A DNA stretch of 64,000 nt from a virus. Taxonomy: Duplodnaviria > Caudoviricetes. Location of the stretch: the IMG/VR virus record IMGVR_UViG_3300021387_000147, one strand, 5' to 3'. The notes beneath the pieces are model-generated. The model had not been told where the DNA came from and did not search any database. It worked only from the letters and a program-made list of their open reading frames with translations. Of this stretch, positions 6,190 to 63,856 are shown one piece after another (within the stretch, counting starts at the first letter, position 1; every line of letters starts with the position of its first letter). A program made the translations under genes and the position numbers.

Positions 6190-6324
6190 TAACCTCTTTT
6201 TGATTACATAGTATAATATACAAAAAAATATGGGTCTCGGAAACCCATATTTATGTAAAATAACGTTTACAATTGTACATTACAAGGCCTTCAGGAGACC
6301 TTTTTATGTAAATTTTTGTTTACA
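6190..6324 (-). promoter_or_regulatory. boxed promoter cassette 1
   Basis: TGTAAA-N6-TTTACA at 6254 and 6307; GGG-TTTCCG-17-TATATT; AAAAAGAGG RBS. Confidence 0.85.
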
Positions 6325-6397
6325 ATTAGTCGTGGTGGCCCCAAATTAGGTACCCTATAAAAATTCCAAGTAAAAGTCCACCCATTTTTATTTCTCC

Positions 6398-7582
6398 TTA
6401 AAATGCGGCCTTAAAATTATAAACCGGTTTAATGATTTTTTCAATTGTCACAGTTGGCTCAATCAAAGAAACGATTTCTTCCATTGGCTTATATGCCATA
6501 GGACTTTCATCCACAGTAGCAGAACTAACACAAGTCGTGTAAATTCCCTTCATTGCTTCCTTATAGTCCTTCATAGAAATAGAATTCTTTGCATCTGCTC
6601 TTGTCATCAATCGACCAGCACCATGAGGAGCACTATAATTCCAATCAGGATTTCCCTTACCAACACAAATCAAAGAACCATCTCTCATATTCATTGGAAT
6701 AATGACACGTTCTCCTTCCTGTGCAGAAATGGAACCTTTTCTCAAAATCATATTCTTCAAATCAATGTAATTATGGATAGTTTCAAACTGTTCTGTCACC
6801 TTGAAACCCATTTCCTTAACAATTACATCCAACATTGCGGCTCTATTCTGTGATGCAAATCCTTGGACAATTTCCATATCATGCAAATAACCTTCCAAAT
6901 GTTCACCAGTTAAATAAGACAATTCCTTTGGAACACTGAAATGGTCATAGTCCTTTAACAATTCCTTGATTTCAGCATCAGTTTTGCCTTGATTTTTGTA
7001 TTGTGCCACAATTGCGCCACGTTCATCTGTGAGCTTAGCACAATCCTTAATCGCAATGTTCTGCCAGTATTCACAAACGGCTACTCCAAGATGACGAGAA
7101 CCGCTATGGATAACGACGTAGAACTTTCCTTCATCATCCTTGTCAACTTCGATGAAATGATTACCTCCGCCAAGCGAACCAATTGAAAGCAATTCCTCTC
7201 CACGAACATCTGCAATCAAATCATCCAAAGAAAAATCCTTTGCATAACGATGCTTATATTGTCTATGTTCCTTTCCAGATGGAATCTTTTCCTTAATTAC
7301 CTTATCAAGTTTACCAAATTCAATAAACTTGTCTTTGAGCTTTGCAACAAGCATTCCACAGCCAATATCTACACCTACAAGATTTGGAACAACTTTATTA
7401 GTAATAGTCATTGTCGTTCCAACTGTGCAACCTTTTCCAGCATGCACGTCAGGCATAATACGGACATTAGAATCCTTAGCCCAACACTGACACATCATAT
7501 TTAAAATCTGTGAATATGCTGCGTTATCAATATTATCTGTAAACACTTTTGCTGTGTTATATTTTCCTTGAATATCTAACAT
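6398..7582 (-). CDS. rtcB: RtcB-family RNA ligase
   Basis: MPDVHAGKG, VGVDIGCGM, GGGNHFIE, HSGSR, HNYID, SAPHGAGR motifs. Confidence 0.95.
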   Translation of the reverse strand: MLDIQGKYNTAKVFTDNIDNAAYSQILNMMCQCWAKDSNVRIMPDVHAGKGCTVGTTMTITNKVVPNLVGVDIGCGMLVAKLKDKFIEFGKLDKVIKEKIPSGKEHRQYKHRYAKDFSLDDLIADVRGEELLSIGSLGGGNHFIEVDKDDEGKFYVVIHSGSRHLGVAVCEYWQNIAIKDCAKLTDERGAIVAQYKNQGKTDAEIKELLKDYDHFSVPKELSYLTGEHLEGYLHDMEIVQGFASQNRAAMLDVIVKEMGFKVTEQFETIHNYIDLKNMILRKGSISAQEGERVIIPMNMRDGSLICVGKGNPDWNYSAPHGAGRLMTRADAKNSISMKDYKEAMKGIYTTCVSSATVDESPMAYKPMEEIVSLIEPTVTIEKIIKPVYNFKAAF

Positions 7583-7790
7583 AACTTACCTCAAAAGAAA
7601 ATTTCACAATTCTTTTCACGTTCTTCCATTTCTTTCATATCTTTCTTATGCTGTTCCATTTCTTTTTTATAACAGTCAAAACAAAGATACGCTTTCATTG
7701 CTGGTAGGCCACTACCATAATCTTCGATTATGAAACCTACAGCAGTCTTTTCATTGATTATGTGTTTTTTACAGTTATAACAAATCATTT

Positions 7791-8093
7791 TTACCTTATA
7801 CATTCTTTTCTTTCGATACGATAATGACCGTCATTTACGTAAGTGTATATTTCTTTATGACTCCATACGCCATAAGAATTATATGCACTTTTGACTACAA
7901 TCGTATCAGGTTCAAGTCTAATAAAGACTTCATCATCACAAACTGTTTTTGTTATTAGTTCCTTGTCATGATATATCCATGCTTGAACGCCTTTGCTTTC
8001 ACAACCGCTGAATATTCCAGCAATAAAAATCAAAAAACAAAGGAATCCAACAAAATAAATTGTAAATTTAGCTTCTTTGCTCAAGATATGCAT
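7791..8093 (-). CDS. putative lipoprotein or membrane protein
   Basis: Hydrophobic N-terminus ending FSGC. Confidence 0.55.
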   Translation of the reverse strand: MHILSKEAKFTIYFVGFLCFLIFIAGIFSGCESKGVQAWIYHDKELITKTVCDDEVFIRLEPDTIVVKSAYNSYGVWSHKEIYTYVNDGHYRIERKECIR

Positions 8094-8243
8094 CTCCTTT
8101 AGGACAACCTAACATTTTCTTTAATTTTTCATAACATTTTTTGCATCGATAAATCTTTTTCCAACCTTTATTTGGTTTATCTACCCATGCTTCTTTTGCT
8201 TCATTCTTATGAAGCTTTTGTTTGCAGTCATAACAAATAATCA

Positions 8244-8426
8244 TTAATCTTCCTTAACAAAGAAATGTTTGAAAATTCCAATTAAGATAGCAACTACGAT
8301 AAGGAAGATAACAAAGGCAACAGCAGCGTAAATAGCCGGTGCAGAAGCAACATAAATTCCTGTTGCTATATCTCCAGCATGTTGTGCCATCATAATCTGT
8401 GCCATTGTTGAAACTTCATTACCCAT
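8244..8426 (-). CDS. small membrane protein
   Basis: GAGG RBS; one TM segment. Confidence 0.65.
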   Translation of the reverse strand: MGNEVSTMAQIMMAQHAGDIATGIYVASAPAIYAAVAFVIFLIVVAILIGIFKHFFVKED

Positions 8427-8435
8427 AATTACCTC

Positions 8436-8759
8436 TTACTTAAGATAGATATTGGTATCATGACCTTTCTTTTCTACCTTAACCTTTTCATTTTCATACG
8501 TAAAATCTTCACCGCAACGCTTCTGACCATCAATTGTCCAACAATTATTACTGTCAACAATCGACTGAATTTGAGCAGGAGAATACAATCTTGCAGTTCC
8601 AGTCAGAACAAGAATGCCCATACCAATCAAGAAACCTGCAGCAGCGGAATCAAACCATCCACCAACTACACAGACCTGTTCGTTGCGAATGCAAACGCCG
8701 ATAATCTTGAGAAGAAGGCCGGTCACGCCAAGAATAAAACCAATGAGAATTACTGCCAT
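8436..8759 (-). CDS. membrane protein
   Basis: Two TM segments; AAGGA RBS. Confidence 0.65.
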   Translation of the reverse strand: MAVILIGFILGVTGLLLKIIGVCIRNEQVCVVGGWFDSAAAGFLIGMGILVLTGTARLYSPAQIQSIVDSNNCWTIDGQKRCGEDFTYENEKVKVEKKGHDTNIYLK

Positions 8760-8926
8760 ATTTATTTTTCCTTTTTATTTAGATTTCCATACGAGGTTTT
8801 TCTTTGGAAGAGCGTCCAAATCAACCTCGTAGATTTTGACGTCCTTTTTAGTATTATTATATTTTGCTACTGGATAATAAGTAAAAGGTTTACTCCATTT
8901 TCCATCTACATTTACAAACCAATAAG

Positions 8927-9621
8927 TCATGTTATTTCCTCTGCCCAAAATAGCCAATCTTCACGATACTTATTCCATCTTTCAACTAATTCTCTTGCTT
9001 TATCCAAATTAAATTTATGTGCTAAAGATTTTACATAAGTAAATGAAGTTTCAGTATCACTATATGTACATGCATAAGAAATTAAATCATATTGTTTATT
9101 CTTTTCATAATAACTTTTTAAACCAATTTCTGCACGTGCAACAGCATAATAAGTCATACATATTCCTCTACCCAATATACACAACCTTCAGAATGATCTA
9201 ATTCATTAAATCTGTCAACTATTTGTTGTGCTGTTTTTAGAGAAAACCTTTGAGCATTACGCTTAAGCGCAGTCATATCAATTTCACATGGAGAATAATC
9301 TCCAATATATGCAATTTCATTTTCATAGCATTTCTTATGAGCATTCCAAACACTAATTGATCGACAAACTCTATACAACATTCATTGTTCCTCTATCCAA
9401 AATAAAGCATCAGGTTCATTTCTTTTCCACTTATTCATTAAATCTATAGCTTCATTGAAAGAAAATCCTGGGTTATAATTTGTATTACGTGCATAATGTC
9501 TATCAAAAGTCCACATTGAAAATGAAGTATTATTAACCAACCATGAAATATCATTTACTTCACATTGTTTTCTGACACTCCATTTTGTAGCACATTTTCC
9601 AATAATATAACGCATTACCAA
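8927..9621 (-). other. three tandem paralogous small ORFs (8927, 9154, 9382)
   Basis: Shared F(N/S)...A...(V/M)..(W/F)...(F/Y)W.EE C-termini. Confidence 0.6.
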
Positions 9622-9837
9622 TCACCAACTTTCCAATCACCATTCAGATAATGCATAATATCATTCTTTACATTTCTGATAAGTGAATTCTGATATTTAA
9701 GATTTGTAATTCTACAATCTACTCGATTTTTAGAGACTTGCTTAGGCCATTCCAAAGTCATATTTGGAAATTTCTTTCTGAGCTTCCAAAACAAGTCATC
9801 CAATTCTTTAAATTCTTTTTCTGCTTGTGTCATAGTA

Positions 9838-10170
9838 TTAACCTTCGAAACAAGTCTTAATAAACTGTTCTCGCATGATTTTTAAAATACTGTTATCTTT
9901 GATATTGCACTTCCTTTCAAGCTCTTTTAAACCTTGCATAAACTGCATCTTTCTGATTTTATCATCGATAATAATTTCAGACCAAGTCGGAGGTAAGTCA
10001 AAAGAATGGCCTCCATCTTTAGATACAACATTAAAAGATTCAAAAGACAATTCCTGGCCACAATTCTTGCAGAAATTTTCACTTTGACAAACACTTTTAC
10101 CACAAGTCGGACAAATGCTACAAATCCACGGAAAACTATGCCTTACAAACGTTCTTACTTCCAATTTCAT
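9838..10170 (-). CDS. zinc-ribbon protein
   Basis: CPTCG...NFCKNCGQ. Confidence 0.7.
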   Translation of the reverse strand: MKLEVRTFVRHSFPWICSICPTCGKSVCQSENFCKNCGQELSFESFNVVSKDGGHSFDLPPTWSEIIIDDKIRKMQFMQGLKELERKCNIKDNSILKIMREQFIKTCFEG

Positions 10171-10180
10171 GATAAATTCC

Positions 10181-10435
10181 TTATTCGATATTATAGATTA
10201 TTTTGTCTAAAAAGTTAATAAATTCAAGATAATTCATGCTCATCCACACGCTTTCGTAATTGAAAGAATGAAGATCACCTTGTTTGTAAAAATACATTGC
10301 ATGGATGCAAAGTTTTCCAATTTCCTTTCCATTATAGAATACATGCGTATCACTAAATTGGAAACTCTCAGGATTGTCATACGTAAATGTGCAACCCTTA
10401 GATTTCAGATAATCGCAAACTTCGCCGTAAGTCAT
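10181..10435 (-). CDS. hypothetical protein
   Basis: ORF in operon. Confidence 0.6.
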   Translation of the reverse strand: MTYGEVCDYLKSKGCTFTYDNPESFQFSDTHVFYNGKEIGKLCIHAMYFYKQGDLHSFNYESVWMSMNYLEFINFLDKIIYNIE

Positions 10436-10966
10436 AGTTAAAAATTAGAAATTACGAATGCAGTGAGGGCAAGAAAATCTGCCGGGATGGATGCAACCAT
10501 CATAGATGCCTTAATAAACATGTTCTTCATTAGTTAGTCTCCTTTGTAAAATGTTCTTTTATCATTAAAATGAGCAAAATATGCCAGCCAAAAATCCAGG
10601 CAAGTGCACAAAGAAAATTAAAGTACCAATTGCATAGTTTTCTCATTTTGTCTGTTTCCTTATTAAAATTCTGCTTCAGTAAAAAAGATTTCAACTTTGT
10701 CAGGTACCTTTGTCATCAGATAATTGTCATACTTACGAGTAAGTGCAACCTTAAAACCCTTAGACTTCAAATACTTCTTCAATTCATGACCACTCATAAT
10801 GTCGTTTTCACAATCGACTATCACAGAAGCCTTATGATTTCTCCATGCATTGATAATTGCACGCTCAATCGTATACAAATACCTGTCCAGCTTTTCCTGT
10901 TTTTCCTGTTCAGGCTTAATCTTAGGAATTGTGCGAAGTTGAGTCAGACTAATCATTTTTGTCTCC

Positions 10967-11299
10967 TTAGTCGTTATAAGTGTAAGCACAACGATGAGCA
11001 GCGAGCTGTTCAATCAGCCAATCATGGAATTCTTCAAACGGAATTTCCTTTTCAGTGCGGTCAAAACCAGCATGCGAGCGAGAAGATACCCATTCAAATT
11101 CAACAATCTTGTCAGTAGACTTAACCTTCTGTCGCAAATCATGACCAAGATAAAGAATGACTGTGACGTTTTTCTTTTCATGCATTTCGCCAGCATATTC
11201 CACATTCTCAGTATAAACTTCTTCACTGATGCCGACAATCTTAGGAATGATTACGGTATCTTTTGAACCAGCTGGATGACGAACTTGGAACATTTGCAT
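10967..11299 (-). CDS. hypothetical early protein
   Basis: First gene after promoter cassette 2; GAGG RBS. Confidence 0.75.
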   Translation of the reverse strand: MQMFQVRHPAGSKDTVIIPKIVGISEEVYTENVEYAGEMHEKKNVTVILYLGHDLRQKVKSTDKIVEFEWVSSRSHAGFDRTEKEIPFEEFHDWLIEQLAAHRCAYTYND

Positions 11300-11304
11300 T
11301 GTTT

Positions 11305-11438
11305 TAACCTCTTTTATTTTAACAAGTAAAATATACTAAATTTGGAACTACTCGGAAACCCCTTTTTATGTAAAAAGAAGTTTACAATAGAGCCCAGAAT
11401 GGTCCCTGGAAGCCATTTTTTGTAAAATTTAGTTTACA
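11305..11438 (-). promoter_or_regulatory. boxed promoter cassette 2
   Basis: Boxes at 11369 and 11421; TTTCCG-17-TATATT; leader TTACTTGTTAAAATAAAAGAGG. Confidence 0.88.
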
Positions 11439-11472
11439 ATAGTATTCGACATAAATAATATAGGAGTGTAAA

Positions 11473-12114
11473 ATGAGTGAACCTAAATTGCCATCATGGA
11501 TGAATTATTCTGACTATGAAGATATTATGCATTATCTTCGTCTTTTTGGAGAAATAAAACCTTATTATTTGAAAGCTGAAGATGTATTTAATGCTGAACA
11601 AGAAGTCATGAAAAGAAAGATGGATGATGGTTTAAGACTTATTGACGTTGCTAAAGAAATGATTTGGAGCTATAAATATAAGGAAAGATGGCATCAATTA
11701 CCAAAGGATGAAAATATGGATTTAACAGAAGCAAAACAAGTATTAACAGACAATGGTTATCTGTTAAAAGAAAATACAAATGAATTGACTAAACAAGAAA
11801 AATATGCATTATTATACTTGTTATTAAAAGAACAAGGTGTAAAGTTAGTTGCAAATTTTAAAGATAGTGTAATTGATGACCAAGAAATTGATTTTGTTAT
11901 TGATAACAAATATCCAGCAAGTATCAAGAATGGTCAATTTGGTGGTATGAGTGATGATTTAGCTGATGATCCAGATACAATCTATTATGCAGTTTGGTTC
12001 TCTGATGATGAAGATGATTATAGAGAAGAAACCTATGATATAAACGAAATCATAGAATACGTTAAAGCTGGAAAATGGAATCAGTTCGTTAAAGAAGAAT
12101 TATTAAGTTGGTAA
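11473..12114 (+). CDS. hypothetical protein with internal MDLTEAKQVLTDNGY peptide
   Basis: AGGAG RBS; CATAAATA at 11450; peptide begins at ATG 11716. Confidence 0.75.
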   Translation: MSEPKLPSWMNYSDYEDIMHYLRLFGEIKPYYLKAEDVFNAEQEVMKRKMDDGLRLIDVAKEMIWSYKYKERWHQLPKDENMDLTEAKQVLTDNGYLLKENTNELTKQEKYALLYLLLKEQGVKLVANFKDSVIDDQEIDFVIDNKYPASIKNGQFGGMSDDLADDPDTIYYAVWFSDDEDDYREETYDINEIIEYVKAGKWNQFVKEELLSW

Positions 12115-12124
12115 GGAATAAAGT

Positions 12125-12673
12125 ATGAATTTAAATGAAGCAAAACAAATCCTAAAGAATGCTGGCTATATCATTGAAGATACTGAAACCAATGATGAAG
12201 AATATGATGCATTATATAATGAATGGGATAAAAAATGGGGTTCAGATCCAGCTATAAATACTCTTATTAAGAAAATGCATAAAGTTAGTAATAAGCGTAT
12301 GGATTTAAAAGATAAGATTGACAACGCAAAGAAGTTCAATTCTAATATTGATAGAATGAAGAAAGATGCAGTCAATATTTTCAAGCAAGCATTTCATGAA
12401 GATGAAGTGACTGACAATGGAGATGGTACGTATACAATAGTTCCTATGAGTGAATATGATATTGAAGCTATCTATAAGTGGGATGATAATGATACTTTGT
12501 CTTGTAAATTTAATTATTCAGACAATGTATTGACATTCAAGCATCTCAGCAAACACTTGAAATATGATCCTAAGGGTGGACCTTGGCAGGAAGGTCAATG
12601 GTCAGGCGATGAAGCACTTGAAAACTTCATTTCAGACTTGGCATTTGAATATCAAAATGCAATGAGTGTATAA
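12125..12673 (+). CDS. MNLNEAKQ-leader protein (putative internal head protein)
   Basis: N-terminal 18 aa shared with 12685 and nearly with 27449. Confidence 0.7.
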   Translation: MNLNEAKQILKNAGYIIEDTETNDEEYDALYNEWDKKWGSDPAINTLIKKMHKVSNKRMDLKDKIDNAKKFNSNIDRMKKDAVNIFKQAFHEDEVTDNGDGTYTIVPMSEYDIEAIYKWDDNDTLSCKFNYSDNVLTFKHLSKHLKYDPKGGPWQEGQWSGDEALENFISDLAFEYQNAMSV

Positions 12674-12684
12674 AAGGTTATAAT

Positions 12685-12969
12685 ATGAATTTAAATGAAG
12701 CAAAACAGATTTTAAAGAATGCTGGATATATCATTGAAAGATATGATCTTGACTATGATTCAGTAAATTCTTCTTTTGATGAAGAAAAACGTCTTGAAAA
12801 GTTTGGTGAATATCTATATGAAGTAAGAGAATTATTATATCGTAAAGGCTTCAGTAGAGGTAAACAAGCTGATAATTATGATGAATTACATGATATAGCA
12901 CATAGATGTTGTAGATTAGGTAAATCTATTGAAGACTGTGCTAAAGAAATAATTTTTACAATAAAATAA
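12685..12969 (+). CDS. MNLNEAKQ-leader protein (putative internal head protein)
   Basis: First 18 aa identical to 12125. Confidence 0.7.
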   Translation: MNLNEAKQILKNAGYIIERYDLDYDSVNSSFDEEKRLEKFGEYLYEVRELLYRKGFSRGKQADNYDELHDIAHRCCRLGKSIEDCAKEIIFTIK

Positions 12970-12970
12970 A

Positions 12971-12998
12971 AAGAGGACTTTTAGTCCTCTTATAAATA
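12971..12998 (+). terminator. hairpin immediately followed by TATAAATA late-type promoter
   Basis: AAGAGGACT-TTT-AGTCCTCTT then TATAAATA at 12991-12998. Confidence 0.65.
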
Positions 12999-13007
12999 TG
13001 GTTAGAT

Positions 13008-13763
13008 ATGAGTGAACGTGAAGAATATACAGCAGAAACATACCCAAGTTTTGGTAAGAAATATAACGGTGAAAAAGCTATCATTAGTTTAACATCTTGG
13101 AAAGCTCGCATAAATACAGTTTCAAAAACTCTGTATAGCCTATTAACACAGTGTCCTGGTTTTCATATAGTTCTTGTGTTATCAGAAGAAGAATTTCCAA
13201 AGAAAATGAATGCTTTACCTAAGAATTTAAAATTATTAGTTGATAATGAATTAATTGAAATTTTTTGGGTATATAAGAACTATAAAGCATTTAAAAAAGT
13301 TCTTTTTACAATGAATAAGTATAAAGACGTTCCAATTATTTCTGCAGATGATGATTTAATTTATATTAAAAATTATGCAGATTTTTTATATAATAAATGG
13401 AAAGTATTAAATACTTATTGCATAGGTTTATCATCATCATACTATAAAAAAACAAATAATTTATGGATAGCTGGATTATGGGGATATGCACAATTATTTC
13501 CACCACATTTTATAGATTATTTAGATTTTAATATAATAAAACAAATTACAAATTTAGGTTGCATTGATGATGATACATTTTATGATATTTATAGACAAAA
13601 ATTTAATATAAATGCATTTAGTTTTCAAATACAATTTAATAAAAATAATTTTATTATTAATAATAATGTTAATCAAAATAATTGTATTACAAATCAACGT
13701 ATAAATCATAAATTAAATGATAAAAAAATATATGAGGGTTTATTAAATGTTAATAATCGGTAA
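13008..13763 (+). CDS. GT-A fold glycosyltransferase
   Basis: IISLTSW..RI and IISADDDLIY (DxD) motifs. Confidence 0.75.
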   Translation: MSEREEYTAETYPSFGKKYNGEKAIISLTSWKARINTVSKTLYSLLTQCPGFHIVLVLSEEEFPKKMNALPKNLKLLVDNELIEIFWVYKNYKAFKKVLFTMNKYKDVPIISADDDLIYIKNYADFLYNKWKVLNTYCIGLSSSYYKKTNNLWIAGLWGYAQLFPPHFIDYLDFNIIKQITNLGCIDDDTFYDIYRQKFNINAFSFQIQFNKNNFIINNNVNQNNCITNQRINHKLNDKKIYEGLLNVNNR

Positions 13764-26847: not shown

Positions 26848-26892
26848 ATAAACAATATACAAAAAAAGCAGGGCTTTGTCAACCCTGCTTTA
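26848..26892 (-). promoter_or_regulatory. leaderless sigma70 promoter fused to a terminator hairpin
   Basis: AGCAGGG-TTGACAAAG-CCCTGCT-T6; TTGACA(26877-82)-17-TATATT(26854-59)-6nt-ATG(26847). Confidence 0.85.
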
Positions 26893-35431: not shown

Positions 35432-35513
35432 ATAACCTCTTTTTGAATACAAGTATAATATAGTAAATTTTATGGCCCTTGGTAACCCCTTTTTATGTAA
35501 AATTTTATTTACA
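35432..35513 (-). promoter_or_regulatory. boxed promoter cassette 3
   Basis: Box 35496-35513; GGG-TTACCA-17-TATATT; AAAAAGAGG. Confidence 0.85.
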
Positions 35514-35628: not shown

Positions 35629-36246
35629 TTAGTCCATAAAGGCCCATTTTTCTGGCTTTTCATCACCATTTATCCATGTAATCAAAGGTTTACAATTGGC
35701 ACCCTTTTCCCATTCAAACCAAGCGTATGCCACTGCTCCAGCCCCAAATAATTCCTCATCGCCATTTTTAGCACAATTGGAACGTTGAGTCAATACATAG
35801 ACATTTTTCAATTGATTTGTATCAAATAACTTTCTTCTCTTTTTACCTTCTAAGAAAGTCAATTTCAAATACATTACAACTTTCCTTCCTTTTGGTATCA
35901 TTTCAAGTGCTTTTTCTACACATTCTTGAGCCAATTCATAAGGAGGATTTGTGACTATATCACCATCAAAAGTTTCTTGTTGTTCTAAGAAGTTCCATGT
36001 TTTATCTAATGGATATTCTCTTTGTATTAAATCAGCACATGTAACATTATAGCCTCTATCCTTAAAGACTTTAGCTATATGACCATTTCCAGCACAAGGC
36101 TCTAAGATATTTTTTGAAAAATCAATTTTACATTCAGTAAATAACTTTTCAACTATCTTAGGATTTGTTGCATAAAAGTCATTTTGTTCTCTTTCATCTT
36201 TACAATGATTAGAACATCCATTTGTCACATAAATCTTATCTGCCAT
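35629..36246 (-). CDS. amino-DNA methyltransferase (m6A/m4C)
   Basis: DFYAT, LEPCAGNG, IVTNPPY, YAWFEW. Confidence 0.88.
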   Translation of the reverse strand: MADKIYVTNGCSNHCKDEREQNDFYATNPKIVEKLFTECKIDFSKNILEPCAGNGHIAKVFKDRGYNVTCADLIQREYPLDKTWNFLEQQETFDGDIVTNPPYELAQECVEKALEMIPKGRKVVMYLKLTFLEGKKRRKLFDTNQLKNVYVLTQRSNCAKNGDEELFGAGAVAYAWFEWEKGANCKPLITWINGDEKPEKWAFMD

Positions 36247-39821: not shown

Positions 39822-39955
39822 TACCTCTTTTATTTTAACAAGTAAAATATACTAATTTTGGATTCGTTTGTTAACCCTGTTTTTTGTAAAAAGAAGTTTA
39901 CATTGCATAAAAATAGGTGCTCTTTTAAGCACCCTTTTGTAAATTTAAATTTACT
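39822..39955 (-). promoter_or_regulatory. boxed promoter cassette 4
   Basis: Boxes 39885 and 39938 (1 mismatch); TTAACA-17-TATATT; conserved leader. Confidence 0.88.
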
Positions 39956-43855: not shown

Positions 43856-44012
43856 GAACCTTCCTTTTAATTTTACTAATACAATATACCTATTTTATTT
43901 TCATCTGTCAACCCTTATTTTTGTAAAAAATTATTTACAATACCATTAAAAAAGCGCCCCGATTTCTTCGGAAGCGCTTTGAATTCAAATGTTATGTAAA
44001 TTTTATTTTACA
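43856..44012 (-). promoter_or_regulatory. boxed promoter cassette 5
   Basis: Boxes 43922 and 43995 flanking an AAAGCGC/GCGCTTT hairpin; TTGACA-17-TATATT. Confidence 0.88.
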
Positions 44013-48669: not shown

Positions 48670-48749
48670 TTTTCCTTTTCTTTAATAAGTAAAATATAAC
48701 AAAAAACGAGGGTCTTGTAAACCCTCTTTATTGTAAAATTATGTTTACA
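48670..48749 (-). promoter_or_regulatory. boxed promoter cassette 6
   Basis: Box 48732; TTTACA-17-TATATT; GAGGGT/ACCCTC hairpin over the -35. Confidence 0.85.
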
Positions 48750-51499: not shown

Positions 51500-51562
51500 T
51501 ATCTTAATTATACCTTTTTATTTTACTTTTGTCAACCCTATTTTTGTAAAATTTTATTTACG
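51500..51562 (-). promoter_or_regulatory. boxed promoter cassette 7
   Basis: Box 51545 (1 mismatch, 9-nt gap); TTGACA-17-TATAAT. Confidence 0.85.
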
Positions 51563-52978: not shown

Positions 52979-52979
52979 T

Positions 52980-53092
52980 AACCTCTTTTATTTTAACAAG
53001 TAAAATATAAGTATTTTGGAATGTTTTGGTAACCCCTTTTATTGTAAAAAGAAGTTTACAATATAGTCCAGTTATGTAAAATAATGTTTACA
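52980..53092 (-). promoter_or_regulatory. boxed promoter cassette 8
   Basis: Boxes 53043 and 53075; TTACCA-17-TATATT; conserved leader. Confidence 0.88.
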
Positions 53093-53652: not shown

Positions 53653-53865
53653 TCACTCTCCTTCTTTATTTATTATTTCATAATTGTCACATGGCAAAAT
53701 ACCAATTCCACCCCATGTTCCCCATATTGTTCCAGCATCATCAATATAATTGATTATACCAGTTTTTCCAATATATTCTTTTTCAGCTGGATCTGGAATT
53801 CCTTTAAGATTTGGTGAAAGAGAAATGATTTTAATTTTTTGACCTATTTTGGGTTGCGCATCCAT
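53653..53865 (-). CDS. DUF4314-like protein
   Basis: G..I.I..L...P....G.I..IDDAGTI...WG. Confidence 0.65.
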   Translation of the reverse strand: MDAQPKIGQKIKIISLSPNLKGIPDPAEKEYIGKTGIINYIDDAGTIWGTWGGIGILPCDNYEIINKEGE

Positions 53866-56700: not shown

Positions 56701-57105
56701 TTACTTAATTTCAGCTTCAAAGTGGATGAATTCACGAGCATAAGACCAATTCTTACCAGTCTTCACATCGACACACTGCCAAGGATAGCGCTTATTCCAA
56801 TCGAAGCCAACAATACGCATGTGCTTCGGACGACGATCGTCTGTCGGGAAAACCTTACCAAACGGATCCAAACCAGGAACACCGCACTTTGTCATTTCTT
56901 CATCAATCATCTGCTTTTCGAAGGGAGTCAACTTGCGAGAACCATCAGCGGCAAGTTCATGAAGGTCAATCTTGTAAGTCAGTCCTTTGTCATTAAAGGA
57001 ACAGGTTGCAGGAGTGACACACATATTGTGAGACTTAGCCCATTCAGCGATGAGAGTGTCGAGTTCATTGTGGAGGCGGACGCAAGTTTCTTTATTCATA
57101 TTCAA
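56701..57105 (-). CDS. hypothetical early protein
   Basis: First gene after promoter cassette 9. Confidence 0.75.
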   Translation of the reverse strand: MNMNKETCVRLHNELDTLIAEWAKSHNMCVTPATCSFNDKGLTYKIDLHELAADGSRKLTPFEKQMIDEEMTKCGVPGLDPFGKVFPTDDRRPKHMRIVGFDWNKRYPWQCVDVKTGKNWSYAREFIHFEAEIK

Positions 57106-57117
57106 TATCCTTTAGTA

Positions 57118-57229
57118 ATCTCTTTTATTTTAACAAGTAAAATATAAGTATATTTGGCTCATTTGGAAACCCTGTTTTATGTAAAAAAACGTTTACATTA
57201 ACCTCCAGATATGTAAAAAGGTGTTTACA
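57118..57229 (-). promoter_or_regulatory. boxed promoter cassette 9
   Basis: Boxes 57180 and 57212; TTTCCA-17-TATATT; conserved leader. Confidence 0.88.
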
Positions 57230-57433
57230 AAACACCTTCTATTTGACATTTTTTGACAGATTTTACATTAAAATCAATAAAACCATTTTGCGATATTAAG
57301 CACCCATACGAAAACGCTTCCGGCTCAGAGTCCCAATATTCTATATTTTCATCATCCGGATTTTCTGTAAATCTGCCATCTTTTAATGGATATGCAGTTC
57401 CATGAGGAAAATCAAATTCAACAGTAAATCGTT

Positions 57434-57952
57434 CTAACATAATACTCCTATTTTATCAATGAATTTATATTTTTTAGCTTCAGTAGCACTCATATAATAA
57501 TCTTTTGACATAAACTTATTAATATCTGACTTCTTTACTTTTCCATATTTGTTTAAAATATCAATCAATTTATCAGTCGCTATATTTATTTCTGCTCTTT
57601 CAATCGATTTATCCAAACCAGTTGGGTCATCATAATAAGGTTTATGTATCATAATTCTAACAGATGGATATGCATATCGATGGCCAGGTGAACCAGAGAA
57701 TAAAATAAAACTTGCCATAGAACTTGTAGAAATTCCTACAGTTGTGACATCAATTCCTTTTGATTTAGCATGTTCAATTAAATCTACAATAGCCAATCCT
57801 TCGTCAACATCTCCACCTACTGAATTCAAATATATTATAATTGGCTTACCTTCATTAATAAATTCACAAAGTTGTTTAACATATTTGGCTCCCGATTTCT
57901 GAGTAATTTCCTCATTGATCCAAAGTCTATTTACGTCAATTTCTTTCTTCAT
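57434..57952 (-). CDS. clpP: ClpP-family protease
   Basis: YLNSVGGDV, SSMAS, MIHKP, D.YMSATEA..Y..IDKI. Confidence 0.88.
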   Translation of the reverse strand: MKKEIDVNRLWINEEITQKSGAKYVKQLCEFINEGKPIIIYLNSVGGDVDEGLAIVDLIEHAKSKGIDVTTVGISTSSMASFILFSGSPGHRYAYPSVRIMIHKPYYDDPTGLDKSIERAEINIATDKLIDILNKYGKVKKSDINKFMSKDYYMSATEAKKYKFIDKIGVLC

Positions 57953-57955
57953 CTT

Positions 57956-58001
57956 TACCTCTAAAGGTAAATGTAATAAAAATTTTTACAATTGTCAACC
58001 C
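57956..58001 (-). promoter_or_regulatory. sigma70 promoter of clpP
   Basis: GGG-TTGACA(57993-98)-17-TACATT(57970-75); GAGG RBS. Confidence 0.75.
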
Positions 58002-58063
58002 AGACCACACGATAAAAGTCTCAACTTCTGTTGAGACACTATCTTTATTTGGATGAATTCCAA

Positions 58064-58324
58064 TTATTGTTTTGTAATAATGAAAGCCCAGCCTTCAGTA
58101 TTAAACATATAACGGTGGCCATCCAAGGTTTCCATTACAATCGTATGAGAACCAATTGTATAAGTTTTAGCCTGATATTCTACACAAGAAGATGCTTCAG
58201 GACATCCAATTGGACATACTTTAATTGGCGTATATGATCCATTACGTGTTTGAACTTGTTTGTCACCACATTCATCACATCCAAATAAACAGAATGCAAT
58301 CAATAATAAAAGTATCTTTTTCAT
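58064..58324 (-). CDS. putative lipoprotein
   Basis: MKKILLLLIAFCLFGC lipobox; start moved to 58324. Confidence 0.7.
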   Translation of the reverse strand: MKKILLLLIAFCLFGCDECGDKQVQTRNGSYTPIKVCPIGCPEASSCVEYQAKTYTIGSHTIVMETLDGHRYMFNTEGWAFIITKQ

Positions 58325-58328
58325 GTTT

Positions 58329-58697
58329 TTATTCCTTCCAATAGCCATAAAATCTGGCAAAATCATTTATATGATCTGATATGTTTCCTTTATAGTCGTA
58401 TTTTCCTTGACAACCATCTTCTAATTCTCTTATCCAGTTCATTTCACAATGCATGTTGTAAATCATTTTATCATACTTTTCCAACTGGTCATTGTAATAT
58501 TGCAATTCAGCTGGTAAACGACCTAATTTATTCAATGATACAGACAACATTGCAGGGTTAATTTGATTCTTCTCAAAATAGAGCTTTTTACGGATAATAA
58601 ACTCACAACGCTCTTTTTCTAGAGTAGAAATCTGAGCCATTGTCAGCATTTTCCATTTTTCTATTAGAATTCTATTATAGTCTGGATAATTCAACAT
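58329..58697 (-). CDS. hypothetical protein
   Basis: Coupled ORF. Confidence 0.65.
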   Translation of the reverse strand: MLNYPDYNRILIEKWKMLTMAQISTLEKERCEFIIRKKLYFEKNQINPAMLSVSLNKLGRLPAELQYYNDQLEKYDKMIYNMHCEMNWIRELEDGCQGKYDYKGNISDHINDFARFYGYWKE

Positions 58698-59257
58698 TAC
58701 TTACATTTATCCTTAATACAGAAATCAACTAAACTTTCTGCAGTATTTTCTCTTGTGCATTTCTTAATGCATTTAATAAATTCTTCTTTACTACCTTGAA
58801 TTTGAACTTCTTCTACAGGTTTTGTTGGCACAATCTTTGTAATAGAATCCAACTTCTTTTCATATTCAGCAAGTAATTCTTGTTTTAACTTTTCTGTATC
58901 AACATTTGAAACTGTCTGCTGAACAACAGGCTTTGGCTGTTCAATAGGCTTTGGTTGTTCTGCGGCTTTCTTTGCTCTCTTTTCTACTCTATATTCTGTG
59001 ACAAGTTTCCATGCCCTTTCATGATTGTTTAAACACCTTTCCATGTTTACTGTGCAAAGACTATCAAGAACATTTATCTTGCATTTGCCAGGATGTGCAT
59101 AACACATATCTTTATAAATTTCAGGTGTTTCAACATAACAACGGTCACCTTTTGATTCACAAATCATATTAAAAAGCTTAGGTACTGCAACAGCGGCAAG
59201 AATGCCCATGATTACAATTACGACCATCAATTCAATTAAAGTAAATCCTTTTTTCAT
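58697..59257 (-). CDS. type IV pilin-like protein (prepilin N-methylation motif)
   Basis: MKKG-FTLIELMVVIVIMGILAAVAVP, then a Cys-rich body. Confidence 0.9.
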   Translation of the reverse strand: MKKGFTLIELMVVIVIMGILAAVAVPKLFNMICESKGDRCYVETPEIYKDMCYAHPGKCKINVLDSLCTVNMERCLNNHERAWKLVTEYRVEKRAKKAAEQPKPIEQPKPVVQQTVSNVDTEKLKQELLAEYEKKLDSITKIVPTKPVEEVQIQGSKEEFIKCIKKCTRENTAESLVDFCIKDKCK

Positions 59258-59730
59258 TCGTCACCTTCCTTAATTAAAACTACCCATTCTCCAGAACAAG
59301 TTATATGACCTTCCTTTTTAGTAGATGGAGTTATCTTTCCATGACATCCAACAGAATACCAGAGAGGATTGTCAAATGTAGTTCCCCATGTAGCCATTCC
59401 AATTTCAAGTCCTGAACTAATTTGTCTCTTCAAATAAATTGGATAACCTACGCCAAATAATTCCAATGCAGGTCTTCCATGTTCAGGAACTCCATCTGTT
59501 GTAATTTTTCTCTTATCAATGACAAGTGAATCAATTAAAGCACCTTCACACTTTGGAAGATTATACGTTTCAAATGAGTTGCTAACGTATACCGTGTCAT
59601 GAACTACAACCTTCTTGACTTTCTGCCTTGTCTGTGTTGAGTCTTTTTCTGTTCCACTTCCAATGAACATGCCACCCAATCCAGCGAGCATAAACAAGAT
59701 AGTCAGAATAAGTACCTTTTTAAAATCCAT
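59254..59730 (-). CDS. membrane-anchored protein, paralog of 59730
   Basis: N-terminal TM; VHDTVY; CSGEWVVLIK. Confidence 0.7.
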   Translation of the reverse strand: MDFKKVLILTILFMLAGLGGMFIGSGTEKDSTQTRQKVKKVVVHDTVYVSNSFETYNLPKCEGALIDSLVIDKRKITTDGVPEHGRPALELFGVGYPIYLKRQISSGLEIGMATWGTTFDNPLWYSVGCHGKITPSTKKEGHITCSGEWVVLIKEGDE

Positions 59731-60173
59731 TATCTTTTTCCTTTGATTTTAATTATCCATTCACCTGCACATTCAGAATAAGTATCACTATCAGGGTCAT
59801 CTTCATCGTATGGAATGTCATACATTTTTCCATTACAAAGAATTGCATATTCTTCGACACTATCTACATCGAATGTTCCATCAGCAAATTGAACTGAAAT
59901 GGCAGTAGTACCCTTATGTGTCTCCAGCGTATCCAGACGCGCTCCAAATGCGTTAGAATAAGAGACAGCGTTTATATACTGGATTCGCTTAACTTCTTTA
60001 TAAAGCGTATCATGGACGAATGTGGTATCTCTTACAACAGTCACAAGAGTGTCCATTTTCTTCATTGAAGTTTCATAACATTCATCAATCTTCTTAAGAA
60101 TTGTATTTGAAAAGACAATGATAGCAACAAAGATCGCTGCGAATAAAATTATATGTTGATATTTAACGTCCAT
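59730..60173 (-). CDS. membrane-anchored protein, paralog of 59254
   Basis: N-terminal TM; VHDTLY; CAGEWIIKIK. Confidence 0.7.
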   Translation of the reverse strand: MDVKYQHIILFAAIFVAIIVFSNTILKKIDECYETSMKKMDTLVTVVRDTTFVHDTLYKEVKRIQYINAVSYSNAFGARLDTLETHKGTTAISVQFADGTFDVDSVEEYAILCNGKMYDIPYDEDDPDSDTYSECAGEWIIKIKGKR

Positions 60174-60514
60174 TATTTAAGCCTTCTACAGTTTTCTCTG
60201 ATACAAAAATCAATTACAGATGAAGAAACATTATTTGCCTTGCATTCAGCTACACATTCATCAAATTCATTATCTTCTTTTACAGGTTCCTCAATAGGTT
60301 CTTCAACATGTGTATTGACTGGCTGAGGTGCAACTACCGGCTTATCTCTAAAAACAAGTGGTTCATCTCTAAATACCATTGGTTCACTTGGAACAGATGG
60401 AGCTGGTTTTACTGGAGTAGTTTCTTGTTTCTTTTTGCACGTACCACAAAAACAACATGGACCAGCGAAAACAAATGATGCAGTAAGAGTTAAGATTAAA
60501 AATAGTTTCTTCAT
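60173..60514 (-). CDS. secreted Cys-rich protein
   Basis: Signal peptide, Pro-rich linker, CVAEC...IDFCIRENC. Confidence 0.75.
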   Translation of the reverse strand: MKKLFLILTLTASFVFAGPCCFCGTCKKKQETTPVKPAPSVPSEPMVFRDEPLVFRDKPVVAPQPVNTHVEEPIEEPVKEDNEFDECVAECKANNVSSSVIDFCIRENCRRLK

Positions 60515-60587
60515 TTGTAATTCCTTTGTTAAAAAGAAAAAGCCCTATCAAAGTTTTTCAACAATGTAGGGCTTTCAAAGATTTTAA

Positions 60588-61862
60588 TTACTTATTGGAC
60601 AACTTAGAAGTCAAATCCATAAGCATGTTCAGACCAACAGCGTCCATAGCATTGCTTGCGCCATTCTTACCATCACCACCAGTCATCATGATTTCTGGTA
60701 CAAGTGGGTGAGAGGACTTAGCAAGAGCTTCTGCAACACCAACCTTAGTCTTATATTCCCATTCAGCACGTTCCTGAGGAGTCAAACCTGCAGCGACCAA
60801 TGCTCTATTAGCCTGAGCTTCTGCTTCCTTTTCAGCCTTAATCTTCTTAGCAACTTCAATTGCCTTTAGAGCTTCAAGACGAGCAACTTCCTTTTCACGT
60901 TCAGCATTCAAAATAGCAACTGCCTTTTCCTTTTCAGCCATAGTCACTTCAGTCATCTTCTGAACTTCCTGAGTAGCCTTAGCTTCTGCAATCTTTGCAT
61001 CACCTTCAGCCTTTGCAGTAATAGCCTTCTGCTTAGCAGTTTCTGCTGCGGTTGCATTTGCTACACGCTGCATTTCACGTTCCTTAACAATATCCAACTG
61101 TTGCTGAGCCTTAGGATCCAACTTTACGTTCTGAATTTCCAACTGCTTTACAACAATACCATACTGAGTAATTGGAGACTTCTTAGTGATAATTCGATGA
61201 CCATCCTTATCTAGCTTCAGCTTAGTAACACGGTATTCCTGAACTTCAGCCTTCTTAACGACCTTACCAGTGGAATCAACTTCATCTTCGCCAGCCTTTT
61301 CCTTAAGTACTTCAATTGTGGTCAAGTATTCACCTTCAACGAGCTGGTCTTCAGCAAGACGACGGAATTCTGCAATCTTTGTAACCTTTGCTTCTTCAGC
61401 GGTAAACAATGGAGCGGTCTTACGAACTGCAGAGAGAACAGCATTTCGAACTAGATTATGCTTTACACCCTTATCACTACGCTGGTTCTTATGAAGTTCA
61501 ATCAACTTATCACAGTCGGTTGGAAGCTCATACATAAGATAACCAGAAATATCTGCGTTTGCATTTCGAGATAGCGTTACAGAAATGTCATCTTCATCAT
61601 CTTCATCGCCTTCCCAACCTTCACCGTTCACCTTTTCATTAGAACTATTGAAATAGAAGGACTTTGCGAGGTCATACTTATAGATGGATGCGAAGCCCTT
61701 GAAATAAAGACCCTGACCCTCTACGCATGACAGCGTTCCGAATGGAGACTGCTTAATGAGCAATTCAGTTGACTGCTTATAGCCCACCATCTTTCCAGCG
61801 AAAATGCCAAGAAGAATGAGCACGATTACGGCAAGAATGCCGAGAACTTGTGTCTTTGTCAT
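60588..61862 (-). CDS. SPFH/Band 7 family membrane protein
   Basis: N-terminal TM, SPFH-like region, AEA-rich coiled coil, LTPQERAEW...VA..LA...VP. Confidence 0.8.
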   Translation of the reverse strand: MTKTQVLGILAVIVLILLGIFAGKMVGYKQSTELLIKQSPFGTLSCVEGQGLYFKGFASIYKYDLAKSFYFNSSNEKVNGEGWEGDEDDEDDISVTLSRNANADISGYLMYELPTDCDKLIELHKNQRSDKGVKHNLVRNAVLSAVRKTAPLFTAEEAKVTKIAEFRRLAEDQLVEGEYLTTIEVLKEKAGEDEVDSTGKVVKKAEVQEYRVTKLKLDKDGHRIITKKSPITQYGIVVKQLEIQNVKLDPKAQQQLDIVKEREMQRVANATAAETAKQKAITAKAEGDAKIAEAKATQEVQKMTEVTMAEKEKAVAILNAEREKEVARLEALKAIEVAKKIKAEKEAEAQANRALVAAGLTPQERAEWEYKTKVGVAEALAKSSHPLVPEIMMTGGDGKNGASNAMDAVGLNMLMDLTSKLSNK

Positions 61863-61897
61863 ATTATGTTTTTCCTTTTTTGTTTATTGTTTGATTT

Positions 61898-62245
61898 TTA
61901 GTTTAAGTTTGTTGTTTCGTTAACTTCTGTTACCTTATATGCAGGTTCACCCCACATTTCCCAATTACGTCTCCACTTTTCACATTCAAGTTCAGATTGC
62001 TTGAAAATTTTAGTATCGACGAAATTACATACTGAATGCGCTACTGCATTTACTGCCTTTTCAGTTACTCTAGGATTAGGATCAGCCTTTACCTCAGGGA
62101 GAATCTTTGAGAACTGTTTAAGCATCCAAAGAACTGGAATTCCGATTACTTTGTAGACAAAGCGACCTACATAAAGTGCAATGCCGTACAGAGTAAGAAA
62201 TAAACCAAATCCACCTACGTTAATTCTTGTTACAATCTTATTCAT
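61898..62245 (-). CDS. membrane-associated hypothetical protein
   Basis: Hydrophobic N-terminal half; GAGG RBS. Confidence 0.65.
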   Translation of the reverse strand: MNKIVTRINVGGFGLFLTLYGIALYVGRFVYKVIGIPVLWMLKQFSKILPEVKADPNPRVTEKAVNAVAHSVCNFVDTKIFKQSELECEKWRRNWEMWGEPAYKVTEVNETTNLN

Positions 62246-62720
62246 TTGTCTTTACCTCTGAATATTCAATCCATTTACATGTATATCCATATATCATATC
62301 AGCTTTTGGCCAAACGTCAGTAAGTGTAAATGTTCCAAGCGTATCTGGAAGTTTAGCCTTTGCATTCCTTGGACAAACAATCCACATGATAGATACTTTG
62401 TTTTCAACTACTCCATCATAAGAGAAACTGTCATACCAACAATTTGCGAATTCCTTCTTGTCCTTAATTGAAGACCATGCCTTAAATGCAGACTTTGAAT
62501 CGCATTCATCTGGACGAGTGATTTCTCGAATTACTGGCGGAACATTTGTTGAATCATCGTATACAATATCATTCAATGCCTTTTTAGAATTCGTTTCCTT
62601 TTCCATATTGCATACATAAACAGCAGAAGCGAGAACTAAAATTCCAAAAATAACAATAAAAGCCTTAAGAAAGAATGACTTGATTTCAGCTTTTGTTTTT
62701 TCATACTGCATCATAGTCAC
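62238..62720 (-). CDS. membrane-anchored hypothetical protein
   Basis: N-terminal TM; AGGAG RBS. Confidence 0.7.
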   Translation of the reverse strand: MTMMQYEKTKAEIKSFFLKAFIVIFGILVLASAVYVCNMEKETNSKKALNDIVYDDSTNVPPVIREITRPDECDSKSAFKAWSSIKDKKEFANCWYDSFSYDGVVENKVSIMWIVCPRNAKAKLPDTLGTFTLTDVWPKADMIYGYTCKWIEYSEVKTNE

Positions 62721-62723
62721 TCC

Positions 62724-63449
62724 TTACTTCATATCCGGCACATAAAGGATAGTCGGGTTGTCCTTATGCACATCAAGCATTTTCATGTTCTTAAGAGTTG
62801 CAGACTTTTCCCAGAGTTGCTGGAAAGTCAGCTTATTGAACGGCTTGCACACGATATGCTTACCACTCTTAGTCGGCACAACGAAAAATTCAGACTTGAC
62901 AGCATTGCGTGCTTCTTCCGCACTGAGTCCAAGGTCACGATATGCCTGAATTCGCTTATCATACGGCTGACAATCCAAAATCATTTCCTTGATTTCTTCT
63001 TCGTAAGGCAGATATTCCTTATCGAGGTCGACAATCCAAGTCTTGTCCTTTCCTGCCTGGCAACACTCGCCACATGCAGAAGCAACAAGATGGAATGGAG
63101 AAGAATAAGTTTCGCCAGATGCACACTGTTCAGCAATGTGCTTCATCATTTCAAGTGCAATGTTCTTGTAATTACGCTTATTGAGGCGGATATATGCTCG
63201 CACATTGAACATATTGCAAAGCGCAATAATATCTTCCTTCACATCTTCAAGGTGCTCAGGGGACTTAATCAGATAGTCCTTAATAGAGCGAGAGTGCATA
63301 TTGCCATGATACTTCGGATCCTTAACACCATTCTTCAGAGGATCATCAGCCTGACGGCGAAGAAGCTGAACGTAGTAGCAATCGCCATGGTCACGGTCAA
63401 TCATCTGCTTTTCAATGTAGTTCTTGATGAGTTCGAAGTTATCAACCAT
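62724..63449 (-). CDS. phage protein with AEP (primase-like) motifs
   Basis: WIVDLD (DxD) and TKSGKH motifs. Confidence 0.55.
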   Translation of the reverse strand: MVDNFELIKNYIEKQMIDRDHGDCYYVQLLRRQADDPLKNGVKDPKYHGNMHSRSIKDYLIKSPEHLEDVKEDIIALCNMFNVRAYIRLNKRNYKNIALEMMKHIAEQCASGETYSSPFHLVASACGECCQAGKDKTWIVDLDKEYLPYEEEIKEMILDCQPYDKRIQAYRDLGLSAEEARNAVKSEFFVVPTKSGKHIVCKPFNKLTFQQLWEKSATLKNMKMLDVHKDNPTILYVPDMK

Positions 63450-63456
63450 TCTTAAA

Positions 63457-63541
63457 TTCCTCTTTAATTTCTTTTAACAAGTAAAATGTAGTTAATTTTT
63501 GCTGTTTTGTCAACCCTTAGTTTTGTAAAACTTTTTTTACA
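63457..63541 (-). promoter_or_regulatory. boxed promoter cassette 10
   Basis: Box 63524; TTGACA-17-TACATT; TTACTTGTTAAAA leader. Confidence 0.85.
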
Positions 63542-63728
63542 GTTTCTTATGGGTATTTCCGGCGATAATCAAATCGGCAAGCGGAGAAATAACAGCAATC
63601 TGATAGAGCATATTAGGCCAACGCTTTTTCATATTGTCAATAAAATGGACGGCAGTGAAAATATCGTCAGCAGTATTGAACTGAGTTATGGCTCCGTCCA
63701 GAATTTGGTATTTGATTTGAAAGTGCAT
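63537..63728 (-). CDS. single small gene between two promoter cassettes
   Basis: GAGG RBS; stop codon inside box 63524. Confidence 0.7.
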   Translation of the reverse strand: MHFQIKYQILDGAITQFNTADDIFTAVHFIDNMKKRWPNMLYQIAVISPLADLIIAGNTHKKL

Positions 63729-63734
63729 TGTTTG

Positions 63735-63856
63735 ACCTCTTTTATTTTAACAAGTAAAATATACCAAAAAAGAAGGGTCTTGGAAACCCTTCTTTTTGTA
63801 AAATTATGTTTACAATAGCCAATTTTTTGGCTTTTTTATGTAAATTTTTGTTTACT
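63735..63856 (-). promoter_or_regulatory. boxed promoter cassette 11
   Basis: Boxes 63797 and 63839 (1 mismatch); TTTCCA-17-TATATT; AGAAGGGT/ACCCTTCT hairpin over the -35. Confidence 0.88.

Follow-up and report, generated by a model that had tools for sequence, protein, structure and literature searches.

Early promoters of T4-type phages are thought to run on the host RNA polymerase alone, aided by AT-rich UP elements. Here we describe a family of early promoter cassettes in a 64,000-nucleotide stretch of a tailed phage (Caudoviricetes; IMG/VR record IMGVR_UViG_3300021387_000147), the whole of which is called the window below, where the −35 hexamer is preceded by an 18-bp palindrome, TGTAAA-N6-TTTACA (the box), that we read as a putative operator. 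The nearest described counterparts are the promoter-early stem-loop (PeSL) cassettes of T4-type phages (Arbiol et al. 2010, PMC2839356; Comeau et al. 2014, PMC4122927). Both kinds are intergenic repeats that join a terminator stem-loop to a strong sigma70-type early promoter, and both are spread among small, variable T4-like early genes; described PeSL cassettes are prone to exchange between copies, as those of the window may be. In the window, a repeated intergenic sigma70 promoter preceded by a stem-loop terminator was found among small variable genes, and each unit combines a terminator with an early promoter, as T4-type PeSL cassettes do. The initial annotation of the window had seen the hairpins between paired boxes but had overlooked this terminator role. 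Upstream of the −35 hexamer, described PeSLs show no more than an AT-rich stretch, whereas the window cassettes have the strict palindrome there and often a second copy of the box beyond the stem-loop. The replacement of the AT-rich stretch by a precise palindrome is what is new relative to described PeSLs; the word 'palindrome' is absent from the founding paper (PMC2839356), and our search of the literature found no paper that describes TGTAAA-N6-TTTACA at phage promoters.

The same sequence is well known from bacteria. The TyrR-box consensus, TGTAAA-N6-TTTACA with the G and C 14 bp apart (PMC4374768), is identical to the phage box, and in both systems sites lie whole helical turns upstream of the −35 hexamer, in TyrR-activated promoters as in the phage, and paired boxes occur. 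Relative to the −35 centre, strong TyrR boxes are located 33 bp (ipdC) and 42 bp (mtr) upstream; they work via the alpha C-terminal domain of RNA polymerase, and the binding of TyrR dimers and hexamers to strong and weak boxes is cooperative (PMC4374768). In the phage, however, the corresponding distances are 22 and 31–32 bp, and the second boxes are strong and lie three to five turns away, whereas those of TyrR are weak and adjacent; the combination of a strong box with an adjacent, dependent weak box that marks the TyrR regulon was not seen in the phage. Phage boxes also precede operons of small early genes rather than the aromatic amino-acid genes controlled by TyrR.

Three further systems are alike in part. 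According to the summary by Lee and Busby 2012 (PMC3445967), Tebbutt et al. 2002 found that tandem CRP sites at −61.5 and at −93.5, −103.5 or −113.5 (32, 42 or 52 bp apart) enhance transcription, and for CRP at −93.5 and −117.5 this was shown to occur via contact with the alpha C-terminal domain. These tandem class I promoters resemble those of the phage in having a proximal dimer site near −60 and a distal site 32, 42 or 52 bp upstream, and each CRP dimer can contact an alpha C-terminal domain, with an effect that depends on position. They differ in motif (TGTGA-N6-TCACA), in being engineered Escherichia coli constructs, and in a proximal site at −61.5 rather than at −54.5 or −64.5. The ComK K-boxes of Bacillus subtilis, a textbook example of such phasing outlined in PMC3536758 (citing Hamoen et al.), consist of two AT-boxes 8, 18 or 31 bp apart, which are whole turns. 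ComK sites and phage sites are alike as two palindromic AT-rich boxes at a variable whole-turn separation upstream of promoters of the sigma-A kind, but the ComK motif is AAAA-N5-TTTT and both boxes are needed, whereas most related phage promoters carry one. Lastly, the cre-var element of clostridial CcpA, TGTAAA-Yx-TTTACA with a spacer of 0 to 40 nt (PMC5263246), has the same 6-bp half-sites as the phage box, although its spacer is variable and that of the phage is fixed at 6.

Motif and promoter geometry

A repeat search of the window returned 10–12 copies of a 76-nt intergenic cassette, of which the palindrome is the common core. Allowing at most one mismatch, 20 boxes were found (15 perfect, five with one mismatch), compared to a mean of 0.78 and a maximum of 3 in dinucleotide-preserving shuffles, a 25-fold excess; phage T4 has no perfect box across its 169 kb. 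Eleven promoter cassettes bear boxes, seven of them two and four of them one (single boxes starting at 35496, 48732, 51545 and 63524). Two matches outside promoter cassettes, at 35677 and 36115, look like chance occurrences. Conservation is strictly palindromic, with 12 positions held around a free N6. Second boxes are strong sites with no or one mismatch, and weak boxes with two or three mismatches are not enriched upstream of the single-box promoters.

All 11 cassettes lie on the minus strand and share one layout. Read along that strand, an optional box 2 and a spacer are followed by box 1, 7 nt, GGG, a TTNNCA −35 hexamer and, after a further 17 bp, a TATATT −10 hexamer; a conserved leader that includes a Shine-Dalgarno sequence then runs to the ATG. 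The gap between box 1 and the −35 hexamer is 10 bp in ten of the 11 cassettes and 9 bp in the other. A sigma70 scan scored the cassette promoters as the best sigma70-type matches of the region. Assuming that transcription starts 7 nt after the −10 hexamer, the centre of box 1 is at −54.5.

The arrangement is widespread. Scans of IMG/VR viral contigs and metagenomes with a box-plus-promoter pattern, which give lower-bound counts, found it in more than 119 viral-contig stretches and more than 116 metagenome stretches among the matches listed. To judge by the sample identifiers, most of these presumably come from rumen samples. Among the related records are a complete phage genome of 419 kb and a contig of 210 kb, and GC content ranges over 31–46 %. 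Among 125 unique related promoters, for which any gap from 8 to 21 bp was permitted, the distance between box and −35 hexamer was 19–20 bp in 93 and 9–10 bp in 17, with 11–17 bp in only seven. The two gap classes, which place the box centre 31–32 or 22 bp from the −35 centre, are one helical turn apart, and the proximal box is thus at approximately −64.5 in most relatives and −54.5 in the window. A site whose centre is restricted to positions one turn apart upstream of the −35 hexamer is the arrangement expected of a class I activator. Single boxes are already locked in phase to the promoter. If both boxes of a pair lie on the face of the DNA occupied by RNA polymerase, they are automatically whole turns apart, and a protein that bridges the two is not required.

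Perfect box pairs or triplets spaced 25, 42 or 22–23 bp were also observed in unrelated viral contigs from other habitats (L143, L146, L148, L152, L155, L164, L180 and L181; L161; L174), so that other phages use the palindrome too.

Spacing between paired boxes

The initial annotation had proposed that paired boxes are always a whole number of helical turns apart. The seven start-to-start spacings that it gave for the window are exact (6254/6307, 53 bp; 11369/11421, 52 bp; 39885/39938, 53 bp; 43922/43995, 73 bp; 53043/53075, 32 bp; 57180/57212, 32 bp; 63797/63839, 42 bp), and each lies within 0.5 bp of a multiple of 10.5 bp (p < 5e-5 compared to uniform spacings of 19–80 bp). The four distinct spacing classes give p = 3.5e-4 with the period fixed at 10.5 bp and p = 0.022 with the period free between 8 and 13 bp. 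The description of the spacers as non-conserved and often holding a small hairpin was also accurate: the three spacers of 34–35 nt have no sequence relation to one another, and hairpins fold in five of the seven spacers, the two of 14 nt being unable to form one. Two of the hairpins (39915–39934 and 43957–43973) score as minus-strand intrinsic terminators.

The test against multiples of 10.5 bp that had been suggested for related phages was carried out on every promoter-proximal box together with its upstream 150 nt, clustered at 80 % identity. Loci retrieved by a pair-targeted search of viral contigs, mostly from unrelated phages, were excluded from these statistics. A second box was present in 42 of the 172 promoter clusters, and the other 130 had a single box. 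Spacings among the relatives were not uniform: 28 of the 46 cluster-distinct values were within 1 bp of a multiple of 10.5 bp (13 expected) and 35 were within 2 bp (22 expected), with a cosine mean of 0.53 (p < 5e-5) and a best-fit period of 10.0–10.3 bp. At spacings of up to 55 bp, 27 of 40 were within 1 bp, and a spacing of 34–39 bp was found in none of the 42 clusters with a second box.

Comparison of orthologues revealed indels that preserve phase. Cassette 1 of the window (box 1 at 6254) differs from its orthologue in L003 by an 11-bp spacer indel (spacing 53 versus 42 bp), and is otherwise identical except for a block change in the N6 of box 2. Similarly, a 10-bp indel distinguishes the first spacer of L026 from that of L282 (32 versus 42 bp), and their second spacers differ by 18 bp, which puts the third box at 19 versus 37 bp. 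Selection on helical phase, as the initial annotation had suggested, is real; it is supported by the clustering at three, four and five turns over many non-homologous spacers, by the exact 10- and 11-bp indels in orthologues and by the empty 34–39 bp class.

The block change in box 2 of cassette 1 (6307–6324) exchanges TTTTTG for AAGAAG in L003, so that five of six positions differ while approximately 130 flanking bases are identical; by its sequence, this looks like patch conversion from another cassette. A further pair type was observed in L317, L020, L269, L291, L316 and L338, where a spacing of 40 or 41 bp is made up of box 1, an inverted copy of its core, CTTTT and a direct copy that opens with AGTAAA. 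Across different cassettes, changes in the N6 of the box are matched by changes in the inverted copy, a covariation that suggests alternative hairpins or duplication by template switching.

Candidate mechanism, binder and rival readings

The sequences show a motif far more frequent than chance predicts, its set place at the promoter in two gap classes, a periodicity of spacings and indels that keep the phase; from these we infer protein binding, activation rather than repression, and contact with RNA polymerase. The reading that we favour, at a probability of roughly 0.55, is that the boxes are putative operators for one dimeric DNA-binding regulator within PeSL-type terminator/early-promoter cassettes. 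The proximal box, two or three turns upstream of the −35 centre, would have the geometry of a class I activator site, and a regulator bound there would touch the alpha C-terminal domain of the host RNA polymerase. Box 2, where present, is located three, four or five turns further upstream, often past the terminator hairpin of the preceding operon, and would hold a second dimer on the same face; this dimer could reach either the second alpha C-terminal domain or the first dimer, or touch both, and would add synergy or cooperativity. The helical phasing is best read as primarily a phasing to the promoter, from which whole-turn spacing between boxes follows. The upstream dimeric regulator is probably an activator.

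A regulator of this kind would matter for several reasons. In this clade of giant gut phages, the AT-rich stretch has given way to a precise putative operator at activator-like positions, which would add a layer of control at the start of infection. Were the binder a host factor, the motif would help to trace the host of these uncultured phages and would be an example of a lytic phage reading host physiology; were it a phage factor, it would represent a new regulator family. The natural series of two-, three-, four-, five- and seven-turn spacings also provides a ready set of constructs for studying face-of-helix rules. A bolder proposal, which we hold as a speculation that is more likely wrong than right, is that a large clade of giant T4-like rumen phages has placed most of its early promoters under a single global regulator of the host, which reads a TyrR-type palindrome; the metabolic state of the host would then control whether infection begins, and promoter gain would depend on whether one or two phased sites are present; the regulator would not be TyrR and the host would not be enterobacterial.

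A number of results weigh against an activating dimer at phased sites. Contrary to what had been claimed, whole-turn spacing does not always hold once relatives are considered: phasing is lost beyond 55 bp (one of six spacings within 1 bp, p = 0.5), conserved pairs are out of phase at 78/79, 59/69, 49, 46 and 26 bp, and there is an additional exceptional class at 40/41 bp. When each distinct spacing value is counted once, the periodicity is non-significant (p = 0.10), and the statistics thus depend upon the cassette clusters being independent; that independence is supported for clusters sharing 32, 42–43 and 52–53 bp, since their spacers are unrelated in sequence. A sequence cannot by itself separate activation from repression, and a protein covering −63 to −46 might just as well obstruct an UP element. 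Searches for a binder in five related phage records, comprising the complete 419-kb genome and four partial ones, gave no match to the TyrR-type helix-turn-helix (HTH) domain (PF18024) or to the XRE-type HTH_3 (PF01381), and only weak, sub-threshold matches to the Fis-type HTH_8 (PF02954; E 0.02–0.04).

Further searches dealt with the window and with Fibrobacteraceae, which are a candidate host only. A pilin mimic has its best match, a weak one, in a Fibrobacter metagenome-assembled genome, and a 20-kb stretch of the window gave no CRISPR-like matches in 151 Fibrobacteraceae genomes. A Pfam scan of 147 open reading frames (ORFs) of the window revealed no clear DNA-binding family among the 25 families shown. 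The HTH_8 search of the relatives led to a weak match in a 114-residue ORF combining an HTH with a zinc ribbon, which had no homologue in the window or in the 210-kb relative G002; no usable phage-encoded binder emerged. No protein scored above the cut-off for TyrR (NF008085) in 41 Fibrobacteraceae genomes, with E. coli as a positive control, and TyrR was thus found neither in the phage records searched nor in these 41 genomes; one Fibrobacter ORF with a tail resembling the TyrR HTH was an ordinary NtrC-type response regulator. Perfect boxes were approximately four-fold enriched in Fibrobacteraceae (69, compared to 16 of the reversed control), compared to 37 and 21 in TyrR-bearing Vibrionaceae and 8 and 12 in a family of Spirochaetales. 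The 20 chromosomal Fibrobacter boxes inspected were all intergenic, none of the 20 had a phage-type −35/−10 beside it, and their neighbours were mixed (pgk, Trp/Tyr-tRNA synthetase, cellulases and an outer-membrane protein). Two of the Fibrobacteraceae genomes (G006–G048) have CCCCCCCCG directly before a box. The combined pattern of box plus TTGACA had one match in 61 Elusimicrobiaceae genomes. Taken together, the host-sigma70-type promoters and the lack of a matching DNA-binding domain in the complete related phage genome make it somewhat more likely that the binder is a host protein than a phage one.

The initial annotation had explained helical phase by one protein bridging two sites, through a tetramer, looping or synapsis; the selection on phase was correctly recognized, but bridging is not required, as single boxes are already phased to the promoter. 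A bridging oligomer, for instance a dimer of dimers or a hexamer of the TyrR type, in which cooperativity or a small loop across the terminator hairpin is selected independently of RNA polymerase, is a tentative alternative that we consider doubtful, albeit one that is compatible with the favoured activator and not exclusive of it. The dominance of 32, 42–43 and 52–53 bp spacings and the retention of phase by the first pair through indels of 10–11 bp are in its favour, and precedents are to be found in the K-boxes of ComK (PMC3536758) and in the cooperative dimers and hexamers of TyrR (PMC4374768). However, 130 of the 172 related promoter clusters have a single box that is already phased to the −35 hexamer, and bridging cannot therefore be the primary constraint. 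Second boxes, moreover, are strong rather than weak sites dependent upon a neighbour, and third boxes, which are poorly phased in general, lie at 19 versus 37 bp in orthologues.

It is also conceivable, though improbable, that the box is a shut-off operator. An early or middle phage protein would then bind at −63 to −46, or span two boxes, and silence the early promoters through UP-element occlusion, trapping of RNA polymerase or looping. The box lies where PeSL and T4 early promoters normally have their AT-rich stretch, upstream of the −35 hexamer (PMC2839356), CRP bound upstream is able to act as a distant repressor from certain positions (PMC3445967), and the relatives lack AsiA and MotA, so that early transcription would need another means of being switched off. 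Yet the box overlaps neither the −35 nor the −10 hexamer in any case, gap classes that alternate strictly by one turn are what activators facing RNA polymerase typically show, and no candidate phage DNA-binding protein emerged from the Pfam scan of window ORFs or the HTH searches of relatives. We consider it very unlikely that mobile PeSL cassettes use the boxes for recombination or synapsis, or that the boxes are mere AT-rich curved DNA, with spacings that reflect cassette copying. PeSL cassettes do recombine and form mini-circles, and their discoverers speculated on a specific binding protein (PMC2839356); the block replacement of the N6 in box 2 between otherwise identical orthologues and the resemblance of the recurring 40-bp class to hairpin-mediated duplication would fit this account. 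Against it stand the strict conservation of the 12 palindrome positions around a free N6, the fixed phase of box to −35 in hundreds of divergent promoters from phages of 31–46 % GC, and equal-length spacers that are unrelated in sequence. DNA organization or a synaptic complex, both of which had been put forward in the initial annotation, is likewise unlikely as the main role, as every proximal box is at one fixed distance from a sigma70-type promoter.

The individual cassettes and their genome context

Cassette 1 (6215..6324, minus strand, as are all those that follow) has its −10 TATATT at 6215–6220, −35 TTTCCG at 6238–6243, box 1 at 6254–6271 and box 2 at 6307–6324, with a hairpin in the 35-nt spacer and the boxes 53 bp apart. 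Cassette 2 (11330..11438) comprises a −10 at 11330–11335, a −35 at 11353–11358 and boxes at 11369–11386 and 11421–11438, spaced 52 bp; the right half of its box 2 could double as the −35 of a divergent plus-strand promoter for a gene starting at 11473. Between this cassette and the next, a twelfth promoter cassette was observed at 26854–26892, where a hairpin overlaps a TTGACA −35 and is followed by a T-run and TATATT; it is box-free upstream and represents a natural box-free control. Cassette 3 (35457..35513) has a single box at 35496–35513, with −35 TTACCA at 35480–35485 and the −10 at 35457–35462.

The two cassettes with predicted intrinsic terminators come next. In cassette 4 (39846..39955), the −10 (39846–39851), −35 TTAACA (39869–39874) and box 1 (39885–39902) are followed upstream by the terminator at 39915–39934 and by a box 2 with one mismatch at 39938–39955, at a spacing of 53 bp. 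Cassette 5 (43883..44012) is built in the same order from a −10 at 43883–43888, −35 TTGACA at 43906–43911, box 1 at 43922–43939, the terminator at 43957–43973 and box 2 at 43995–44012, giving the longest spacing of 73 bp. Single boxes are found in cassette 6 (48693..48749; box 48732–48749), where a hairpin at 48708–48726 overlaps the −35 TTTACA and whose relatives have an extra box 19 or 30 bp upstream, and in cassette 7 (51507..51562), where the box (51545–51562) has one mismatch, the gap is 9 bp and the promoter is a consensus TTGACA-17-TATAAT.

Cassettes 8 and 9 share a 32-bp spacing. The former (53004..53092) has its −10 at 53004–53009, −35 at 53027–53032 and boxes at 53043–53060 and 53075–53092, separated by 14 nt that are free of any hairpin; the latter (57141..57229) has them at 57141–57146, 57164–57169, 57180–57197 and 57212–57229. 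On the plus strand at 53055–53082, the 32-bp box spacing leaves 16 bp between TTTACA (right half of box 1) and TAAAAT (left half of box 2), and the two make up a sigma70-like promoter. Upstream of box 2 in cassette 9, at 57235–57270, is a run of hexamers resembling TTGACA/TTTACA or TGTCAT/ATGACA and 9–11 bp apart, and similar runs with the same interval fill the out-of-phase 78/79-bp spacers of L004 (1683–1743); these may be sites for another factor. Cassette 10 (63485..63541) has a single box at 63524–63541 and −35 TTGACA at 63508–63513. In cassette 11 (63758..63856), the −10 is at 63758–63763, the −35 at 63781–63786, box 1 at 63797–63814 and box 2, with one mismatch, at 63839–63856; the spacer of 24 nt contains a hairpin and the boxes are 42 bp apart.

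In several cassettes a GC hairpin of the form GGGTCT..GGAAACCC overlaps the −35 hexamer (6224–6250, 48708–48726 and 63767–63793) and its T-run abuts the −10 hexamer, so that terminator and promoter have bases in common. Beyond box 2, a divergent small zinc-finger or zinc-ribbon gene starting approximately 15–23 nt away was observed in L005 (at approximately 9640), L153 and L156.

The window has a GC content of approximately 31 % and is densely packed with small minus-strand genes in the standard code. Alternative codes (TAG=Q, TGA=W) were considered for the seemingly ORF-poor region at 16–27 kb and rejected, as it contains tightly packed small genes under the standard code. No close relative was found among cultured phages, and the RNA ligase of the window had only matches below 35 % identity. 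Besides this ligase, the window encodes RtcB, a CCA-adding enzyme, NAPRTase, a ClpP-like protease and other auxiliary genes. One of its 147 ORFs matches type II chorismate mutase (PF01817, E 2.6e-18), an enzyme of aromatic amino-acid metabolism, and its occurrence in a phage with promoters of TyrR-box consensus may be a coincidence.

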